The notes under the pieces were generated by a model. The model worked only from the letters and a program-made list of their open reading frames with translations, had not been told where the DNA came from and did not search any database. Made by a program: the position numbers and the translations under genes. A stretch of 62,916 nucleotides of DNA, the filler included, from Globobulimina sp. (lineage: Eukaryota), in assembly GCA_003354225.1 (NCBI GenBank). It is 25 parts of 25 records of this genome, joined end to end, with 100 filler letters (N's around TTAATTAATTAA, not from the genome) between each part and the next. Parts side by side here need not be neighbours in the genome. Positions count along the whole stretch, not along the records: positions 10,089 to 12,510 come from PIVH01006775.1; 24 more parts are not named here. One strand, written 5' to 3'. Of the stretch, positions 2,523 to 50,273 are shown in pieces; positions within the stretch are counted from its first letter, which is position 1, and each line of letters opens with the position of its first letter.

Positions 2523-4944
2523 AAGAGATCTTTTCAAAATCAAAGGGGAAGTCTCTCGTATTGTTGATCAACGACCAAACATTTCTGCTATCCGTACTGA
2601 AGACTTAGGTCCTCTGGAAACACAAATCAATGATATTTACAGGAAGTTGCTGGATAGATTCACTAAATTTGACGCGGCTACTGAAAATGTCAATAAATGC
2701 TGCATTGCTATCAACGATGAAGTAGCTCAGACAGCCCTACAAGTTGAAATGGATGAAGAACATGATTAGATCACCGAATTTCGTGATAACTTCCTCACAA
2801 TTCGTCACCTTTTGTCCACTATTCAACAAAGAATAACTAATCTGCAGCAACCTCCTCAACCTCCACCGCCGGTAAAAGTCGAACAGGACCCAGCTCAGTT
2901 GGTTCAACTTGTCACAGCTGCAGTGGTCGCTGCAATGGCACAATTGCCACCTCCCCCTGCTCCAGTACATGCCGGTCCAGCTCAACCTGCTGCACATGTT
3001 GCTCAAGCACCAATTCATGTTAAGTTGCCTAAATTTGAAATGCAAAAATTCTCAGGAAACATTCTTCATTGGAAAGGTTTTTGGGATGAATTCTCATCGG
3101 CAGTCCATAATGTTCCAGGCATGTCGGCAATTAACAAATTTCATTATTTGAAAGCTCAACTGGGAGGAGATGCCCTTAAGACGGTATCTGGCCTTCGATT
3201 CACTGCAGAAAATTATCAAGTGGCAGTTGACTTACTGAATGGTCGTTTCGGCAAAAATCATTCAATAATTGAAGCGCATTACACTGCAATTGAGGATTTA
3301 CTTTCTGTTAGCAGTCATCATGTAAAGTTGCGTTCTTTCTTTGACACTGTTGAACAACATTTACGCTCACTCGAGAGCCTCGGTGAAAATATTAACCTTA
3401 ATATTTTGGTTAATATGATCAAACGGAAGCTTCCACATGATGTTTTGACGCAGATCGAGCGACTGAAACCTCATGCAGAGCCATGGACTATGGTACTTTT
3501 GCGACAGTATCTGAAACAAGACTTAGAACTTCGTGAAACTATCAGTCCAGCCGAGAAAACTGACGACAGAACATCACCCAGAGGTTCAGGCCCTCGTTTT
3601 CATAGTGATTTTAGTTTGGCTGACAAACCCAAACCTTCAACACCTAGACCTACTGGGGAAGCATTTCTTGTTCGCGAAACAAGAAAGCCATCTCATCCGT
3701 GTCACTTTTGCAATATAATCGGTCATTATTCTGATGCATGTCCAACAGGTGCAGGCCTTGAAGCCCGACAACAAAAGATCAAAGAGCTTAATGTATGTTC
3801 TGTTTGTTTTTGTGAAGGACATGAAGCTTCAAACTGCAATTCCCAACGTTCATGTTTCTTTTGCGCCGCAGTTGGAGAACATCATCAAGCACTTTGCCCA
3901 AAGAAATTTGGACTGACACCTGAGTCAAAACCGCCTGATAAAGGTGGTCCATCTGTTAAAGAGACTGGTAATCTCAGTATCCATGATGAAAAAGAACCAG
4001 CTCTCTTGGCAAACGGTGAATCAGTCATTATGCAGACAGCACTGGCCACCATTGGAAATCCTTCAACTTTAGACACTCTTATTACTCGTCTTCTTTTCGA
4101 TTGTGGTAGTAATCGTACTTATATCGCCATGAGATTAGCAAAGTTGCTAAAACTCAAATTCGGTAAAAAGGTTCGCATTCAAGTGGTTACTTTCGGTACC
4201 GACAAAGTTCAGACAGTTGAGGCGTTCACAACCACGTTGAATATTCTGTTGAAAGATGGTTCCTCCATGGAAATCGTCGCCCACATCGTTCCCACAATTA
4301 GCGGTACTACACATCGTGTTCCATATGGTACTCAAATTGCTTCATACCTAATGAAAGAAGGTACCATGGCAGACACTTTTCCGACTGAACTCGAGTCTTC
4401 GCCTGTCGAATTACTCATTGGTCAGGATTATTACTTTGATTTGACTAATTCTGAACGTATTCAAATTCGTCCAGGTCTTTATCTTCTGGGATCAAAATTA
4501 GGATGGATCATCGCAGGTCGAATCACTGGTTGCAGTCCTTCTGTAACTGACCATAATTTGTTTTCACATTCATACACCACTTCGTCATCAGATAGTCTAT
4601 TTGCCGCTCATTATGAGGCATCACTACCAGAACCAGCAGTTCATAAAAAGGTTATGGATGAAGTTGGACTTTCTTGTGGGGAGGGTCCTTCGGATCATTG
4701 GAATGCATTAACTCATGATGGAGTTCTGGAGATTTTACCCAATCAAGACGATGATGATCTAGATTTTGTCTCACCTACAATCTCATCAGCCCAGTCATTG
4801 CTATGTTTACTATATCCAATAGAGTGTCCTGTCGCTACACCAGGTCACCCTATCATTTCTACTTTTGGTGCAGACTCTACTTTTTCCTTGGGCGCCAATT
4901 CTACTTTTCCAAAATCGGGCCCCATTGTTTTTGCGATTGCTTTT
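2523..4944 (+). mobile_element. Bel/Pao LTR retrotransposon gag + aspartic protease, degenerate and partial
   Basis: DUF1759-like gag (KLPKFEMQKFSG...W..FWDEF...KFHYLK), three CCHC knuckles, protease LLFDCGSNRTYI, LLIGQDYY and SKLGWIIAG. There is an in-frame TAG at 2767-2769. Confidence 0.9.
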
Positions 4945-10088: not shown

Positions 10089-12510
10089 GTTGGACGGATG
10101 TATTGATTGATTGCCTTGTTGATAATTTCGCGCTTTTTGACATTTGCGTTAAATGATGCATGATTCCACTTTTCTTTGTTGGATATCTTTTTAATAATTC
10201 AGTGATCTTCCACAATAACACCGCATTGCTGATTAAAAATATGATAAATACAATACCGCCGGAATACAAATTGATTTCAACGGTTACTTCGTCAAACATA
10301 ACCACTAAAATCTGCGCTAAAATATGTAACACCAATAATAATTTTGCGACATGAAAGAAATAATCCAATATCGTCGCATATGGTGTCGGAGGCAGAGACT
10401 CCGAGATTGTAATTTTAAAAGTAAATAAACACAGCAATAATGTGGCAATCACCGATAATCTCTTTGCCAATGGATGTGGCGCACAAAAATAAATGGAAAA
10501 TGCAAATATCTCAATCAATAACAACGGCATAAAAGTATCCCAAACGTGATGTTTCCATCTTCGCGCAATAGGAACATCCACAATGCAATGCGTATATCTC
10601 TTACCTGATGTACTGCCACCATCCATTGCTGACTCTCGATTGATATAAATCGACGGCGAAAATACATCCCAATCCGTACCACCCATCATATCCAATTTAA
10701 AAGGCATCAGCCGGACATTCAACTCGTCCTCGTCCGCAAAAGTCGCAACGGATTCGTCAATTTGTAATGCAAATTTCATAGTAACCTTATGATGGTCAAA
10801 GGGGAATGCATGTAAATCAAAGGGCTGACTGAAAATGCCGCGAATATTACCTCTCGTATACCACAACGGTTTGCTACTGTCATTCGAATTTGATTTATAT
10901 TTTCTGCACCATTTCTCGTCATTTTCTCGATAAATCTCTTGCGTTTCCATTGCATTCAATGCACATAAATTCCACGACGGAGTATCGTCATAGACACCCG
11001 CTTGATGCTCTTTTTCGTGATTGATGGCTTCTGCGCCAAAGGCCGCATTCTGCGATGGATCGTCATTCGTAAAGGCTGCATACCAAATATCTGCCCAATA
11101 TGACATGTTTTGGGTCTCGACCCGGTCAATGTGATTGATTAATATTTTCAATTTGATCTTTTCCGGATCTGGCGGCGTATATAACAATAAAGCGTCTTCC
11201 AACGAGGTGACCATAACCGATGTAATAAATGTCCAGACGCGATTCCATGAACCTTTGATATCTTTCCATTGCAAAGGCAGCGCATTTTCCAACATTCGAA
11301 ACCAGGCTGTTTTCATATATTTAAAATGTTTCGGTAGCACATTTAAATAAACATGACGGCGACCTAATTCTTCCAAAATGGAAACAGCTTCATCCACATT
11401 ACTCAATAACCCGATGATGGAACCAACGGCGCGCACCAATTTATTCGCTTGTTGCTGCATTTCAGTTTTACTAAATAAATTGCGAACTTCTGCAGTCGAC
11501 GAGACCAGATCTTTGAAAAACGATGTTACTGCCACATCCATTACTTTTTGAACATCATCCCACGAATCTTGCGCCACTTTGATGTCTTCCGCACTGATCT
11601 CAGAACCGTCGCCATCCTCAGTGATGCCAATGGAGGAACAGGTCGTCGCATTGTCAGCGACACCGCGATATCCTGCCATCATCATACCAATAATAAAGGA
11701 GATAACACGAGTCCATGAGCCACGTAATTCCTCTGTAAATTGAAAACCTAAACATTGTTCAAATAATTTGATTAAGATTGGCTTCATTAACGCTAATAAG
11801 CGCGGATTAATATTCATCGCTGCATGTTTACGGCCCAATTTCTTTAAATATGGAATTAAATTATCGACATCCATCAATTGTTTAATCACCGCAGTTAACA
11901 TTGACATGACTACATCCGTTTGCTTTGCTACATCAATGCTATGCGTATGGAATACTTTTAAAATCGAGGTTTCTGTGGCTATTAATTTCAATAAGGTCGC
12001 ACAACATTTCTCGCTGTTGTCTTTACCACTGATTAGTTTCCACGCTGCCGTCACCTCTTCAATATCGTGAATGGTCATTGATCGAAATACTCGCTCCCTA
12101 TTTTTCTTTGCTTTCTTATCGGAAATGGTGGTCTTTGAAGTCTCGCGGTCATAGGCGGCACGCATTAAAATAATAAAATTTTCTTGTAATTTGCTCCAAA
12201 CTCTTTCAATCTCAGCTACATCGGCACCATAATCAGTATTTTCTTCATTTTCAAATTGCATAAAACCGGTGATTGCGTCTAAAACGCATCGATTTGCTTC
12301 TTGGACCTGGGCAATGGAAATGTTATATTTTACGTGACGGCCAAACATCTCAAATACGCATTCATGCTCTCCATTACACATTAAATTAATACCTTTTCTG
12401 TACATATTTATTAAAAAAGCGCCTTGAATGGCGATACCGGGCATTGCTGAAAAGACTTCTGAGGTTTCTGGACATGCTTCAACTAATTGTTCGACGATTT
12501 GGATTTGTTT
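10089..12510 (-). CDS. Multi-globin (at least 3 domains) fused to a Cys-less pentameric ligand-gated ion channel; both ends truncated
   Basis: One open frame across the whole contig. Three globin repeats with CD1 Phe, E7 Gln and F8 His (FGRH, LGRKH, LGRRH), then an LGIC extracellular domain with FDLHAFPFD (FPFD at 10795-10806) and four TM helices with the M2-M3 loop SLPPTPYATILD. Confidence 0.88.
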
Positions 12511-12610: not shown

Positions 12611-12760
12611 CAACAGTCAACTATCAACTGTCAACTATCAACTGTCAACTATCAACTGTCAACTATCAACTGTCAACTATCAACTGTCAACTATCAACTG
12701 TCAACTATCAACTGTCAACTATCAACTGTAAACTATCTACTGTGCACTGTCAACAGTCAA
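12611..12760 (+). repeat. Minisatellite, 14-nt unit CAACTGTCAACTAT
   Basis: About 9 near-perfect units at the contig start, decaying 3'. The unit is a dimer of CAACTRT. Confidence 0.95.
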
Positions 12761-40341: not shown

Positions 40342-42761
40342 CCAAATAATCCATTGTCATTAACTAGAGCTGTAATGGAAGTAAAAATATTATTCGATTC
40401 TGATGGGATATATCCCGGAGCTGAACTGTACATAATACCAATAATTAATTACCAAAATGGCATATCACAGTCAGATGGTACTATACAATTAACATTTGAT
40501 GCTGATTTTGGATTCGATGACAATGAGGCTCAAATATTGATTGATTTCTACACTGATTCGTGCATTGTTACCTATGATAATGATAGCATTGACTGTTTGG
40601 ATGCTATTTTAATTCCACACGAAATGGCAATACAACCTATTTCCCAAAACGAATATTTTATCCAAATTCAATCTTTTGATATTAAATTAGTTGGTAATGT
40701 ATCGTTTATTTTACAGAGAGAAATTCAAACCGTTTGGGTGGATGTAACTGATTCGGTGTATTTGGGTCAAAATATTGAATTCATAGCAGGTGCCATAGGA
40801 AACATTTCATATCAATTCAGCTCTGAAATTACTATAAACAATCCACAGTACCAAGTCTCTTCCATTATTTATTTAACATATACAAATATTTCAGAAGAGT
40901 GCGACATAGAAACATTTATTACTGGCTGGACAACCGGATGTGACGAAGGAATTAAATTCCACACAGAGGACGGATATGATGCCGTGTCACAATATATTCA
41001 TTTATCATTGATATCGTCAGATTCGTATTTGCAGGACTCACAATTTGATGTATTAATTGCGGATTGCCCGATGGGTCAAGGGATTACATCTGGTTCATGC
41101 ACGGATTGTGGATTAGGCCAAGTTGGAGCTGATAGAAATTCGGTTTGTATCGATTGTAATGGGATTGCAGGCGTCGAATGTTTTGGTTCCTCCAATTTGC
41201 AAATCAGTTATAATTATTGGACGCAAATCCAAGCAAATAATATAATTTCTGCATTTTGTCCATCTTCAGTTTGTTGTCGAGTTGAAAGTGGTTGTAATCA
41301 CACAAATGCTTTAGATTTATGCGCAGTGAATCGAAATAATAGTGTCCCGCTTTGTGGATCATGCAATGATGGATTCGCGGAAGTATTTGGATCTGCAATG
41401 TGTAGAGAATGCGATGATAACTATTTATATCTATTATTTCCATTTCTTGTGTCGGCATTTCTTGTTTTAATAATGGTAATTGTTGATGCTCCATCTGCTA
41501 CAACAACAAATAAGGAAACTGATCTCAAAAAAACTATGGCCAAAGACGACATTCAAGCATTACAAATATGTTTCCTGCGACCATTCACATATTTCTTCCA
41601 AGGCATTAATTTTGTTACAGTTCAAACAGGATTTTGGTTCTATTTATCTCCATTAATGACCTTCTTTGCATTTGATTTTTTATCCGAATCTAACAGTGAA
41701 TCTGGCATTTGTTTTCTGAACCATTTAACTTCGATGCAACTCGAATTATGGTATTTATTTGTGCCATTTTGTATGTTTTTGTGTCTGGCAATGTATCGAT
41801 TGATCAATTTTATTGTGCAGAAAGTGTGCAAAAAACCATTAAGATGGCTGGTGTTTGGATGGAATGTGGTTTGGTCATTGATTTTAATCATGGTTGGAAA
41901 TGTAATATCGACCATGTTAAACATAATTGCCTGCAGTCGTATTGGTGACGAATTGGTCCATTTCCATGGTGGTTATTTACAGTGTATGGGTGGTTTGTGG
42001 TATATGGCATTCTTTGTATTGATTGCAATCATTATATTTTGGTTTATTGTTTGGATTTTATTGAAAAAAATGAGTGCCATTGAAAGGGATTCCCGACAAT
42101 CATATTTACGAACAATTACCAAACCATACAAATTAAAATATTGGTACTGGGAAATAGTGCTGATTTCCAGACGTATTTTGTTAACATTCTTTGTAACATT
42201 TCAGTATATTTCATATGATCTCATTCAATATAGCTTATTAATGATATTGGTGATTTATTTAGTCCTTCAGGTTCAATTCAAACCATTTAAACACGACAGA
42301 GCAAACTATATGGACATAATGTGTATGTTTCTATTAATTGTGAGTTTGACGACTGTTGTATTCCAACTCCATCTCAATTATCCAACGGTGGTATCCTTTA
42401 TAATGACAATGGTGATTGGATTACCTATTTTGTTATTGTCTGTTTATACAATTTATGCAATTATCCGGTATATCGGCAAGAAAAACTACCGTCAAGAAAG
42501 TATTCAGAAAATTAAACTCCATTTGACCAAATCACAAAGACGTGGTATGTTCGGAAAAGAGTCAGCGTCGTTGGTGGATTATGAAAATGATACTGAAGAC
42601 GAAGAAGATAAAGTGAGGGTTGGTATTTATTCAGCTGTTGATATTACGGGCGACACTGAGGAGGAAATTAAGGACGAGGATGAAATTAAGAGCGAGGAAC
42701 AAGTACAACTTGTCGAATTAGACAAGGATTTGCTAGATGAAGATGAAGATGAAGATACATG
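40342..42761 (+). CDS. Large protist membrane protein: Cys-rich ectodomain plus multi-TM C-terminus (partial)
   Basis: CAVNR...PLCGSC..GF, about 9-10 TM helices, PYKLKYWYWEIVLISRRI and KPFK. Confidence 0.75.
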
Positions 42762-42861: not shown

Positions 42862-45203
42862 ATAAAACTAAAATATCAGAGTCAAAAAAAAGGTGTATTG
42901 AGGTTGCAGCAGTGTATATTGAGGACGCCATTCATGTTCGAAAGCCCCAAACAAGAATACAAGAAAAAGGAATTGATTTTAAAATATGGAATCGTCGAAT
43001 AATATTATCACCATTAAAAGCATACAAATTCGTCCATAACAAATGGTGGAAAATATTTTTATATTTTGTTATATGGACACATTTATTATGTGTTATATGG
43101 GAACCTAACAATTCTCGAGCAAAAGACCTCGATGATTTTGATATGATCAATACTGTTAACCTATATTCCTTTATATATTTATATTTAGAATTATATGTAC
43201 GTACAATATATATAACACAGTGGATATTGGCGATTCAATTATCGTGTTTGATGATTTTTATTCTTGACTGTGCATTGAAGCTCTTCTCTCATGATTGTGA
43301 ATTTCGACACAATCCATGGCAAAGATTGTTATACTTTGTCATTACCATCAATACAATCCATGTAATATTAACATTTATGGGCCATTTCATCCCACAAAGT
43401 TTAAATTTATGTTTGCAAATAGCGCGTCCATACTATCTGGTATACAATGCGCGTTCCCTTCGCAGTGTGATCCGTGGCGTGGTGCGGTCCGTGCCGCGCA
43501 TCATGGTCTTAGTCTGGGTCATTGCATTCACGGTCTGCTGCTTTGGCCTCATTGGATATGAACTATTTTGGGACGTCAAAGAGTCAAACTTCAACACTTT
43601 CGAAGATTCCATGATATCCCTAATGGTATTACTAACCACTGCGAACTACCCCGATGTTATGATGCCGGCTTACCACAGCTCCCAATTCTCAGTCATCTTC
43701 TTTGCTTGTTTTGTCATTGTCATATTAGTCTTATTCCTGCCAACATTGTTAGCTGTCATCTATGAGGGATATCACAGTCAAACGCAAAAACGTTACAGCG
43801 AAATCACCAAAGTTCACAAAGAAGCATTGCTGCGCTCCTTTGAATTGCTGACCTGCGAAAATGACAGCAAATTATGGTTCGGCTCCATGAGCGAATCGTT
43901 TGCAACCAATGGGATGCGGAGCAGTTTGGTGGTGACAAAGGACATTTGGATGCAATTTATGAGGATTATCAGACCAGATTTGGATGCCATAAAACAGGAG
44001 GTATTGTATACCACATTGCGTTTAACCGAGGAAGACTTGTCCTGCCTTCCCAGTGTGGTGGAATACAAATTGAATTCGCCAGAGACTGCAGACGGTATCA
44101 CCCAGCAACAGTTCTTGAGGCTGCCTGAGTTCATAGAGATAAAGTTTCGCATCTCGCATAAAGCCGGCATTGCCCACGAATTGGTCGCGTTGCAAAGCAA
44201 GATCCGGCCGATGGAAGCGCTGACCTTTGGAAGCCTGATGAAATCGTATGAGACGAAACTCAGAGTCTACTTATTGTACATTTTCAGCCATCCATTCAGC
44301 GAAGCACTCATTGATTGGATGGTGTGGGTCAATGCGCTGACGTTCATTGCCGAGAAATGTGCCAATGATTTGTATTCTGATTATAATGGGATAATAATTT
44401 TCAGTGGCATCCATGCAACGTTTCTGGTGATATTTATCTTGGAAATTATTTTAAAAATCTATGCCTTTGGTTCGCGGGCATTTTTAAGTGATAAATTTTT
44501 TATATTTGACACCATTTTAGTGGTTTCAGGCACGATCGGATGGATCAGATCGAATGACAGCGATTCTTACGTTCAGTTAATTCGAGCTTTGCGATTAGTG
44601 CGCGTTGTGAAGGAATTCCCGCAAATGAGACTGTTGGTTTTGTTTCTGAGTTCTCTGCTGCGCTCATTTGTGATTTTGTTATTGGCGCAGTTTTGCGTCT
44701 TTTATGTGTTTGCCATGATTGGAATGGCAATGTTTGACGGCTTATTGGGATATGACGAGATAAAAAGAGAAATGGCAAAGTTTAAGCCGACAGATTCTGA
44801 TTACATTTTTTGGTACAACCATTTGGATCATCCGGATGCCGCACAAAAGTATTATTATTTGAATAATATGAAATCATTTATAAACTCAATGATTGTCTTG
44901 ATGGAGTTGTCAGTCGTCAATAACTGGCAAGTCGTGATGGCAATGTATATAAAGATGAGCGATAACCATTACAATCGAATATTTTTCATTGCATTTTACT
45001 TTTGTTCGGTGATTGTTGTACTTAATGTGGTGATTGCCTTTGTTATTAATTTGTTTTTGGTAAATTACGGACAAAACATCTCCTCAAATGATTTATTGTT
45101 TCGCTACAAGAGATATATTATTATGTCGATATTGATACATCAATTAAATGACAATGAATACGATATATATCATTGGACCATCCATATCCAAAATTATACA
45201 TAA
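42862..45203 (+). CDS. Two-pore channel (TPC family), 5' partial
   Basis: Two 6-TM repeats with pore motifs LLTTANYPDVMMPAY and LMELSVVNNWQVVM; S4-like IRALRLVRVVK. Confidence 0.92.
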
Positions 45204-47901: not shown

Positions 47902-50273
47902 ATCGGTTAGATACTACCAATCGCGCAGTTAATATTTATAAAGCTCCAACAAAGCGTCAACAACAGTTCAAGACTGAAGGACCACCAGAAGTACATGTGA
48001 ATCATGCACAAGTACAAAAGTTGAGTGGACGTAAACGATTGACGATCCCATCTCGGAACAAGAAGATACAAGCTAGAACTTGGGAAACCTACGACGATAC
48101 ATTGTATGCTGCGAATTCAACTGCATCTGATGAACAACGGATGAAACATGTGCAGAAGATGATTGAGATGAAAGTTCCAGATGCAACATTATATCCAATT
48201 TTGAATGGATTTGAACCAGGGTTATTACAAGCATGTGTAGAACGAATTCCAGCAATAAAACGAGAGAAATTGGCACTCAAGGCAGTAGTGGAAAGTAAAG
48301 TAGTGGAAGAACAACTGCAACCGGAACCAGAGAATGTAGAACAAGCATTCATAAGAATAAAAGCATTGTACTTGAAATACCAGATTTTGCTGGTGCGTGA
48401 TATAATAGGAAATATTAACAACAAAAGCGCCAGAAATGCATTGGTTAAGCGGTTACTATTGGATGTAGATCTCGCTCAAATGCGACGAGCTCCTTTCGTA
48501 ACATTGTTGGAATACTACGGAACTCCAAATGAACTGACGATCAGAGATCATGGAGTGAAAGAATGGCTGCAAGATTCAGAAGTTGTGCGTGCTGGATCTA
48601 CTTGGGATACAGTTCTTGTTTTTGGACCAGGAACGGAACGGTCAAGTGATGCAATAGGAGGAGAAATGTTATTTGGAACAGCAATAGAAGCACCAAATGA
48701 TACAACAACATTTGATGTAGTGGCCAGTATAATTCATGTCAGCAATATGGTACTGTTCAGAATCACAGACGGTTCATGGCGTCGTGTCACGGCTTTACGT
48801 AATATTGCTGGATTACAATCCCAATTCATATCAAATATGGGATGGATCGCCTACATTACAGACTACCAAGGACAATCATTGAATAAAACAGGGTATTTGA
48901 AATATTGGTTTAGAACACCAGAAGCAGAAGCAAGAATGTGGGGAGAAACTGATAAAGCTACAGTGGACTTTCAACAACCTTATACAACTCAATTCATACG
49001 AGACGATCGTGTAGCCTTACGAATTCGAATTCAAGATCAACACTACGATGTATGGGACAACGAAGGATTACCTGGGCGTCCGTTATTGATGCCACGTGGA
49101 ACCCGTTGTCGTATGTACGCAGAAGCTGGACAATTTCTTCAACGAGTTAAAACAGAAGAAACGATTGGAGTTATAAAAAGTTTTGTAAAAGGAAATGAAG
49201 AACGACAACCGGACGTGAGATTTGAGGGCAGAGATGCTCCTAAAGATCTTATTTTGTGGAATGTGGTTGTTGTGGCAGAAGATGGAACAGAAGAACAATT
49301 AGAAGTACGACCATGTTGTATGTACCCACAGAGAGATACGTACAATGCTGATACAGCGTCAGTAGGTTCATTTTGTTATATAACCTATGTTCCGTCAAAA
49401 ATAAAGAAAGCAATGATTCCCCGAGAACGACGTATTGTCCCAGAAGGAGAGACATCAATGACAGAAAGTAATACCTCTGGAGAAGAGGGAGAGCCACATC
49501 CGAAACATGAAACGGTAATAGTAACAGCTTGTACAGTCAAGTGCATTATTGGGGAAGAGGCATGGAGAAGATTATATGCATGGGCTACACCTTCATCGAT
49601 TAGTGCTACATTCATCCCTAAGCTGTGGCGCTATCTTAGGCCTGAATACCAAGATTTCGATTTCATCGTAATGATGTTCTCCCGTATTCATGCACTATTG
49701 GTTCTAAATGAACTTGGTATAATCCGGAAGAGATCAGCTCAACTGAAACTAGAGGTTACAGCACTAGTGAAACATCGGTATCCTAATTTGGTTTTCGAAA
49801 TTTTTGTACCCAAAGCTCGATATTGTGCTGACAAAACACTCAAAAGAGTTATTAGTCAGTTTACATTTCATCTGAGCAAACCCGTATCAGTAAAACTGTT
49901 ACAAGCAGTAATTGATCCAGAAGAAGGGGTACAGAAATTCTTGTTGGATGATGGTGTTCCAGGAGGTAATGCTTATGTGACACAAATAAAGCAGGTCTAT
50001 GTTGAGGAGGAAGAGATCCAAGATCTTGCTGGTCCATTATGGGCATCCAATACACTGGATACACCGGATCCGAGATTGGTAACGGACAACCCTCCGCCTG
50101 CTGGCAGCAGTATGATAGTCGCGGGACGCCGTTTGACCATCACGCTGAATCCAGTGTCGGCAATACCATTCATCCATAAAATCCAGAAAACCGAAGTTAT
50201 TGCGATCCAAATGACTCCAGTCTTGAGTCATAAAGCCCATAGAATAGACACGTTTCAAATACTGAATCAATAA
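47902..50273 (+). CDS. Large intronless hypothetical protein (about 790 aa or more, 5' partial)
   Basis: The frame is open from the contig start to TAA at 50273; no motif recognised. Confidence 0.75.

Follow-up and report, generated by a model that had tools for sequence, protein, structure and literature searches.

Three tandem globins joined to a Cys-less pentameric ligand-gated ion channel subunit in a foraminiferal contig: a candidate gas- or redox-responsive channel with a probably cytosolic sensor region

The contig and its reading frame

The subject of this study is one contig (10089-12510) in a 62.9-kb window, the whole stretch of DNA analysed, from Globobulimina sp. (assembly GCA_003354225.1). 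Its frame, P0001, represents some 93% of the full length of a eukaryotic gene whose product is one subunit of an ion channel of the pentameric ligand-gated class (pLGIC), here of the Cys-less Pro-loop type, preceded by three tandem N-terminal globins. An earlier reading of the DNA (the original prediction) had described one uninterrupted minus-strand frame across the contig, and this frame was indeed found to be open end to end, without a stop from the first to the last base, P0001 being the sole open reading frame there. Homologues reach about 28-30 residues beyond the first codon of P0001, and the true start therefore lies off the contig; at the other end, cut by the contig, homologues continue for 5-31 further residues. 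The Met at 12444 is preceded by 22 codons that had been noted as open; these align with homologues and are coding.

The window is not one locus: it was put together artificially from 25 contigs of about 2.42 kb each. Runs of N around TTAATTAATTAA separate the contigs (24 such spacers found, 0.1 expected by chance), and since the joins are artificial, neighbouring genes in the window are not genomic neighbours. The other contigs encode BOP1 (BOP1NT and WD40), CAP-Gly, WW and RRM proteins, an Ion_trans fragment and a Pao-type retroelement; as these are eukaryotic-type proteins, the assembly is taken to be eukaryotic. Within the window, tblastn gave no further copy of P0001, the self-match being the only hit.

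Globin domains

On P0001 the Pfam Globin model (PF00042) scores 94.6 bits against a gathering cut-off of 22, in two stretches that correspond to domains 2 and 3, and it matches all eight relatives. Searched against the PDB with phmmer, globin 2 detected neuroglobin (7ohd, E 4.3e-10, residues 151-283) and globin 3 a haemoglobin-like protein (3wfw, E 5.8e-10, residues 307-435, with a globin match range of 307-439). Profile comparison of the two domains using hhalign gave 99.4%.

Domain 1 was recognised by profile and by fold. Its profile aligned with that of domain 3 at 81% (E 1.2e-5) and with domain 2 at 58% (E 1e-4), against 0.3% for the channel half, used as control; when its N-terminus was completed from homologues, it matched a profile built from five unrelated single-domain globins (92.4%, E 5.2e-7; 124 columns, from helix A to helix H). 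Modelled alone with AlphaFold2 (AF2), it folds into six helices with a predicted local distance difference test score (pLDDT) of 85.6. The fold search with the whole P0001 model had its ranks filled by the channel domain, and domain 1 was tested separately. On comparing the domain 1 model with 48,161 PDB representatives (VIA-align, no Foldseek prefilter), globin-fold proteins alone occupied the top ranks, led by myoglobin and cytoglobin (Z 12.0, root-mean-square deviation (rmsd) 2.3-2.5, 114-116 of 125 residues). Residue 1 of the model aligned at about chain residue 24 of the PDB globins, which places helix A off the contig, in agreement with the homologue alignment.

The proximal histidine F8 (H59, H229 and H386) is present in all eight members of the core family in each of the three domains. 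In domain 1, every alignment made puts F20, Q29 and H59 at CD1, E7 and F8. The distal E7 position is glutamine in seven, eight and seven of the eight for domains 1, 2 and 3 respectively, and CD1 is phenylalanine in six, eight and eight; in globin 2 each of the four key residues is invariant (8/8). The three globins are thus candidates for haem binding. Their closest PDB sequence matches are neuroglobin, Hell's Gate globin, thermoglobin and flavohaemoglobin-type proteins, and the Pfam Protoglobin model gave weak matches in four of the eight members (best E 1.2e-4; P0009 at 17.5 bits against a cut-off of 25). Judged by these matches, the globins appear to be of neuroglobin or single-domain-globin type rather than the protoglobin-like sensor globins of classical globin-coupled sensors. 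The three globin-like repeats of the original prediction do agree in range with the domains reported here, and they score and model as globins; we regard the triple globin as very probably real.

The closest relatives of the globin domains are giant poly-globin proteins without a channel (P0010, P0011 and P0019), in which Pfam Globin stretches number 14 in 2461, 12 in 1842 and 9 in 2352 residues.

Channel domain

The AF2 model of the whole of P0001 (pLDDT 89.1, predicted template modelling score 0.67) places a beta-sandwich at residues 450-652, followed by four long helices at 653-775. VIA-align superposes residues 445-778 on subunits of the GABA-A, GluCl and glycine receptors with Z 23-23.8 over about 290 residues (rmsd 2.5-3.3); the best match is the GABA-A RDL subunit (Z 23.8, rmsd 2.6, 294 residues, 446-778), and 1000 of 1000 aligned chains had Z >= 8. 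The model and these superpositions both place the beta-sandwich and the four transmembrane (TM) helices, in that order, in a single chain. Against the PDB, phmmer detected DeCLIC (E 2.3e-11, residues 528-734) and ELIC (E 2.8e-6, residues 556-720), and the ESM Atlas gave no more than leads, at a score of 0.83, to eukaryotic pLGIC clusters. A subunit of this kind would be predicted to assemble into pentamers.

No cysteine occurs in the Pro-loop and its flanks (GIFSQPFDLHAFPFDHHKVTMKF), and the Cys-loop disulfide pair of metazoan-type receptors is absent. The M2-M3 loop reads SLPPTPY and the M3-M4 loop is of about 10 residues. These features match those listed earlier for the channel half, namely a beta-sandwich with an FPFD Pro-loop, no Cys-loop disulfide and helices M1-M4. 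Pro-loop P570 (in FPFD) and D572, pre-M1 R650, the M2 residues 0' R, 6' T and 9' L, and P707, P710 and Y711 of the M2-M3 loop are each found in 8/8 members. The accessible part of Jaiteh, Taly and Henin 2016 (PMC4795631) gives the proline of the Pro/Cys (beta6-beta7) loop as the sole absolutely conserved residue.

At the -1' position four members have Lys, two Glu and two Ala, and ion selectivity may therefore differ among paralogues; in the present copy, Lys at -1' together with Arg at 0' suggests anions rather than cations. In loop C the motif SAxxGGSxSGKxYTHC is near-invariant in the eight core members, whereas this Gly-rich loop is not retained in the distant two-globin fusions described below. 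The motif is reminiscent of phosphate- or anion-binding loops.

The fusion family and the linker

Seven full-length homologues with the whole architecture are 35-65% identical to P0001. EukProt transcriptome sets labelled Bolivina argentea supplied six of them, and the seventh is from a 2.5-kb JGI contig on which it is named merely "hemoglobin-like flavoprotein". Scanning 1.84 billion representatives exhaustively with HMMER yielded 2634 matches at E <= 1e-3, of which 32 reached E <= 1e-30, and added P0009 together with five distant fusions that combine two globins with a channel (P0012, P0013, P0015, P0020 and P0034; 21-27% identity). A tree built on 60 channel domains puts every one of the 13 fusions in one clade of 20 rows (Shimodaira-Hasegawa-like approximate likelihood ratio test support, SH-aLRT, 99), the other seven rows of which are fragments or N-truncated models; of these, P0025 keeps a globin piece and P0047 begins inside the linker. 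The sister clade (nine rows, support 99) consists of unfused channels. The tree is from a quick LG+G4 search and its deeper branches are tentative. A pattern search for strands beta1/beta2 retrieved 117 stretches in genome contigs and 111 in metagenome contigs, none of which was confirmed; with patterns this narrow, it gives a weak indication that the family is absent from prokaryotes.

The globin-channel junction near 11170 is bridged by public contigs that cover 10610-11385, 10853-11487 and 11008-11334 and come from three runs of a single sample, which may be the source sample; a run from a second study yielded pieces of the channel and of globin 3 at about 97-99% identity, none of them across the junction. 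Amongst the differences from near-identical public contigs, 30 of the 40 listed are synonymous and 31 of 40 fall at third codon positions (five more are unlisted); the frame is under purifying selection. The original prediction had taken the fusion as genuine, subject to a check across about 11170; homologues and contigs now span that point, and the fusion is almost certainly real.

No segment of the protein is better conserved than the linker between the H-helix of globin 3 and strand beta1 of the sandwich, 8 of whose 14 columns are invariant (Table 1); the linker pattern recurs in the distant two-globin fusions. Such conservation would be expected if the last globin passes a conformational change into the sandwich.

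Identical proteins are found under both Bolivina argentea and Nonionella stella (P0003/P0156, 827 residues; P0005/P0157, 851 residues), and the species labels of the homologues are therefore uncertain, owing to cross-contamination or a shared organism. In P0007, P0008, P0009 and P0038 globin 1 is preceded by a further N-terminal stretch of about 80-100 residues that is acidic and hydrophilic; the pore of this subgroup also differs, with Ala at -1' and Arg at 16'.

Table 1. Features of the fusion contig, in window coordinates, with mean pairwise identity by segment
Feature	Residues	Position	Strand	Evidence or key residues	Mean pairwise identity
Whole open frame, protein P0001		10090-12510	-	807 codons; fills contig; truncated at both ends	
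Globin domain 1	1-125	12136-12510	-	Profile and fold match; helix A off contig	0.31
Globin domain 1, candidate haem residues		12334-12336 (H59 codon)	-	CD1 F20, E7 Q29, proximal F8 H59	
Globin domain 2	147-284	11659-12072	-	Pfam Globin; PDB neuroglobin 7ohd	0.43
Globin domain 2, key residues		11824-11826 (H229 codon)	-	B10 L173, CD1 F187, E7 Q197, F8 H229	
Globin domain 3	306-435	11206-11595	-	Pfam Globin, best stretch 341-433; PDB 3wfw	0.52
Globin domain 3, key residues		11353-11355 (H386 codon)	-	B10 F332, CD1 F346, E7 Q354, F8 H386	
Linker, globin 3 H-helix to beta-sandwich, SLEDALLLYTPPDP	436-449	11164-11205	-	Most conserved segment	0.82
pLGIC beta-sandwich ('extracellular' domain fold)	450-652	10555-11163	-	AF2 strands; fold and phmmer match	0.53
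Cys-less Pro-loop, FSQPFDLHAFPFDHH		10789-10833	-	FPFD	
Loop C, SAMDGGSTSGKRYTHC	627-642	10585-10632	-	Gly-rich, basic	
Transmembrane helices M1-M4	653-776	10183-10554	-	AF2 model; fold match	0.53 (M1-M3); 0.25 (M4)
M2	684-706	10393-10461	-	0' R684, 6' T690, 9' L693	
Basic post-M4 tail	777-807	10090-10182	-	5 K/R, no D/E; cut by contig end	0.23
Spacers flanking the contig (examples)		9989-10088 and 12511-12609			

Membrane topology

The general order of bacterial and animal pLGICs, according to the accessible part of Tasneem 2004 (PMC549065), is signal peptide, ligand-binding domain (LBD) and four TM segments, with accessory domains placed after the signal peptide. The original prediction had likewise regarded P0001 as a ligand-gated channel of ordinary design, whose additional N-terminal domains would, given the usual topology, lie outside the cell. 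This part of it is probably wrong, as neither a signal peptide nor any hydrophobic segment was found in the roughly 650 residues before M1 in full-length members. No hydrophobic N-terminus was seen in 16 full-length sequences that start with Met (13 fusions and 3 unfused relatives), and no TM-like peak precedes the membrane domain in the fusions; at the threshold applied, P0034 yielded no peak of any kind. Five homologues begin with Met within 1-2 residues of alignment column 81-82 and have acidic, non-hydrophobic N-termini, and three more have hydrophilic N-terminal extensions of about 80-100 residues. With no signal peptide and no hydrophobic segment ahead of M1, the globins and the beta-sandwich are likely to be cytosolic; translocation of a folded region of about 650 residues with three haem domains is implausible without a signal sequence.

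The distribution of charges is consistent with such an orientation. In seven of the eight members (those with a tail), Lys and Arg number 5-10 on the side of the N-terminus, M2-M3 loop and C-terminus and 1-3 on the opposite side. The M3-M4 loop is acidic and of minimal length, and the tail after M4 is 36-62 residues long in full-length relatives, with a median of 42 in the fused group. Four pLGICs with signal peptides from the same hit list, taken as control, have C-terminal tails of 2-13 residues and balanced Lys and Arg. Taken together, the P0001 family probably inserts with both N- and C-termini inside, the globins and the sandwich facing the cytosol.

The feature may extend well beyond the fusions. 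Of 45 nearest unfused pLGIC relatives examined (among P0043-P0155), 40 are without a signal peptide and five have an obvious one, and a compared subset of those without showed minimal M3-M4 loops and long Lys/Arg-rich tails after M4, up to 577 residues. There may thus be a broad, probably eukaryotic, group of pLGICs whose ligand-binding domain lies in the cytosol.

Comparison with known systems

DeCLIC (Desulfofustis; PDB 6v4a and 9ftg) is the best PDB sequence match of P0001 and shares with it a Cys-less Pro-loop, a short M3-M4 loop and extra domains N-terminal to the beta-sandwich. According to the accessible part of PMC9897478, the N-terminal domains of DeCLIC are periplasmic and modulatory, and it is depletion of calcium that activates the channel. 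The added domains of DeCLIC are, however, non-globin, whereas P0001 has three haem-type globins, a family without signal peptide and a long basic tail. ELIC, GLIC and the Cys-less protist pLGICs have in common with P0001 the missing disulfide, the Pro-loop proline and the short M3-M4 loop. Cys-less pLGICs of unicellular eukaryotes are a known group (Jaiteh, Taly and Henin 2016, PMC4795631, accessible part); that study trimmed the termini, its accessible text contains neither 'globin' nor 'signal peptide', and its supplementary alignment may list members of the present family unrecognised.

The known globin-coupled sensors are prokaryotic and have one protoglobin-like globin, with outputs such as methyl-accepting chemotaxis protein (MCP), diguanylate cyclase (GGDEF), histidine kinase and STAS-type domains. 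As in P0001, HemAT, DosC, AfGcHK and the Geobacter and Bordetella sensors have a haem globin at the N-terminus whose last helix leads into the output, and globins of this class were among those that domain 1 matched in fold (Z 9.2-10.2). P0001 differs in having three tandem globins of neuroglobin or single-domain type, an ion channel as output and a eukaryotic host. Fusions of type I periplasmic binding protein (PBP-I), Cache or MCP-N domains to pLGICs likewise place a sensor N-terminal to the ligand-binding domain in one chain; in the accessible part of Tasneem 2004 (PMC549065), from which the word 'globin' is absent, these sensor domains lie between signal peptide and ligand-binding domain and are extracytoplasmic and solute-binding. 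As for the globins themselves, neuroglobin, Hell's Gate globin and thermoglobin, which globins 2 and 3 match best in sequence (E 4e-10 to 4e-6), have the proximal His and CD1 Phe in common with P0001. Unlike neuroglobin, which has His at E7, the P0001 globins have Gln, and they are also tandem and membrane-tethered; with Gln in place of His, bis-His coordination in the manner of neuroglobin would not be expected.

No globin-pLGIC fusion and no signal-peptide-less, inverted or cytosolic-LBD pLGIC was found in the full-text literature searched, a scope outside which most subscription journals and supplements fall, and the accessible text of a foraminiferal transcriptome paper (PMC8153729) has zero occurrences of 'globin'. 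This agrees with the original prediction, which knew of no characterised fusion of this type. Both halves belong to known families and their combination is apparently undescribed.

Proposed mechanism and alternative explanations

If the subunits insert with both termini inside, a pentamer would carry 15 globins and the beta-sandwiches on its cytosolic side. A haem ligand or the redox state of the haem (O2, nitric oxide (NO), carbon monoxide (CO), Fe2+/Fe3+) would bring about a change in the H-helix of globin 3, which the near-invariant and presumably rigid linker would convey to the beta-sandwich; from there it would pass through the Pro-loop and M2-M3 loop to the gate at 9' Leu, governing the passage of ions across the plasma membrane or that of an organelle. 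Gating by O2, NO, CO or redox state is what such a scheme would predict. That the globins bind haem and, from the cytosolic side, exert control over the channel seems to us about as likely as not. The full proposal, that this would be the first ion channel whose gating is under the direct control of a haem-globin sensor of gas or redox state within the same protein and, in addition, a member of an upside-down pLGIC lineage with a cytosolic sandwich, is put forward tentatively and is on balance doubtful.

Several results count against the scheme as a whole. Pfam accounts for domains 2 and 3 and misses domain 1, which was found by profile and fold; in Foldseek the latter had no match at E <= 0.001, its top 50 hits (E 0.014-0.18) all being globins. 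In VIA-align, helical models may reach about Z 13 by chance, and the case for domain 1 is therefore made by the globin-only top ranks together with the profile match. For the channel half, the Pfam pLGIC models stay below threshold: Neur_chan_memb scored 14.2 against a cut-off of 28.1 and Neur_chan_LBD was not found on P0001 (among the eight relatives, weak matches to the former occur in five and to the latter in one); the phmmer matches to DeCLIC and ELIC are significant. Globins of the neuroglobin or single-domain kind can be enzymes or O2 buffers and not sensors, and at B10 of globin 3 P0001 has Phe against Tyr in six of eight relatives. The near-invariant loop C could mean that a separate small molecule is the true agonist. 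The topology is deduced from simple hydropathy and charge counts, a control of four sequences and N-termini taken from transcriptomes and metagenomes, that of P0001 itself lying off the contig. Haem binding, pentamer formation, conductance and gating are, moreover, all properties that we infer from sequence and models.

Amongst the alternatives, an assembly chimera or a decaying pseudogene would be suggested by the shortness of the contig (2.4 kb), the low coverage of the assembly and the fact that no single public contig covers the whole. Yet the junction is spanned by 13 fusion proteins, P0001 included, which belong to separate 50%- or 90%-identity clusters, and by bridging contigs from three runs of one sample, while the 807 codons are free of stops and the listed differences are biased towards synonymous changes; both readings were rejected on these grounds as, by the sequence data, exceedingly unlikely. 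A classical topology, in which the globins and the sandwich are extracellular or luminal and sense gas or redox state outside, requires that the gene models have missed a signal peptide or that an unconventional route is used. Such an orientation has in its favour that the sandwich faces outside in every characterised pLGIC (Tasneem 2004, PMC549065, accessible part), that the N-terminus of P0001 is beyond the contig, that arginines before M1 are found in signal-peptide-bearing pLGICs too, and that annelids have secreted extracellular haemoglobins (PDB titles). It is hard to reconcile with the shared Met start and acidic N-termini of five homologues, the hydrophilic extensions of three others, the roughly 650 residues without a hydrophobic segment before M1, the long basic tail alongside a minimal acidic M3-M4 loop, and the missing Cys-loop disulfide, and we consider it improbable.

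The functional alternatives accept the architecture and differ on what the globins do. B10 Tyr with E7 Gln is typical of O2-avid or NO-dioxygenase globins, and this pair is present in globin 3 of most relatives. Some other cytosolic small molecule might gate the channel at the inter-subunit site under loop C, the globins serving to modulate it, to tether an enzyme activity (NO dioxygenase) or O2 buffering to the pore, or to organise assembly. A loop C near-invariant in 8/8 members would be unexpected for an unused orthosteric site, the globins are nearest to neuroglobin, Hell's Gate globin, thermoglobin and flavohaemoglobin-type proteins with weak Protoglobin matches in half of the members, and their nearest relatives are the giant poly-globins that have no channel. 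Conversely, conservation within the protein peaks in the linker, which favours mechanical coupling over a passive tether, and the distant two-globin fusions lack the Gly-rich loop C while keeping the globins and the linker pattern; this alternative appears somewhat unlikely. A still more modest role for the channel half, that of a non-conducting, pentamerising membrane anchor which concentrates a poly-globin for O2 or NO handling, would be in line with the sub-threshold Pfam pLGIC scores, the poor conservation of M4 and the tail (0.25 and 0.23) and the many soluble poly-globins among the relatives. The invariance of 0' R, 6' T and 9' L, of the Pro-loop Pro and Asp and of the M2-M3 Pro and Tyr argues otherwise, as do the conservation of the beta-sandwich and M1-M3 at a level equal to or above that of the globins (0.53 against 0.31-0.52) and the superposition of the model on open and closed channel structures at Z 23, which together render an anchor very unlikely.

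Functional and ecological implications

Haem-based gas sensors drive enzymes, chemotaxis receptors and transcription, and to our knowledge ion channels are modulated by free haem or gases merely indirectly. If gating by the globins is correct, a single chain of globins and a pLGIC pore would be a direct transducer of gas or redox state into current, a natural hybrid of two textbook models of allostery, haemoglobin and the nicotinic-receptor family. Should the cytosolic orientation hold, a large group of protist pLGICs would have to be read as receptors of intracellular signals. The protein is also a concrete candidate for O2/NO sensing by foraminifera that thrive in oxygen-depleted sediments, and might serve as a basis for engineering gas-gated channels.

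Nitrate is taken up by such foraminifera and kept in store, probably in vacuoles, by a mechanism stated to be unknown in the accessible part of PMC4686598. In nitrate-storing, denitrifying species, the channel could, if it works as proposed, release anions, nitrate among them, from the stores as cytosolic O2 falls or NO rises, an idea that fits because the pore mouth is of anion type (Lys at -1', Arg at 0'). An O2/NO-controlled anion channel with a cytosolic sensor in foraminifera is, at this stage, speculation.

Other contigs in the window

A contig-filling frame on the plus strand at 42864-45200 shows two Pfam Ion_trans stretches (E 1.3e-52) and is a fragment of a multi-repeat cation channel of voltage-gated type. 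The plus-strand frame at 2770-4944 carries DUF1759 and DUF1758 (putative peptidase), a pair that we take to be typical of gag-protease regions of Pao/BEL-type retroelements. Two more plus-strand frames, at 40342-42759 and 47904-50270, fill their contigs with about 800 codons each and have no Pfam match at E <= 1e-5. Beside the spacer, the start of the contig next to P0001 in the window carries a tandem repeat (about 12626-12740) of some eight copies of a 14-nt unit, CAGTTGATAGTTGA in the minus-strand reading.

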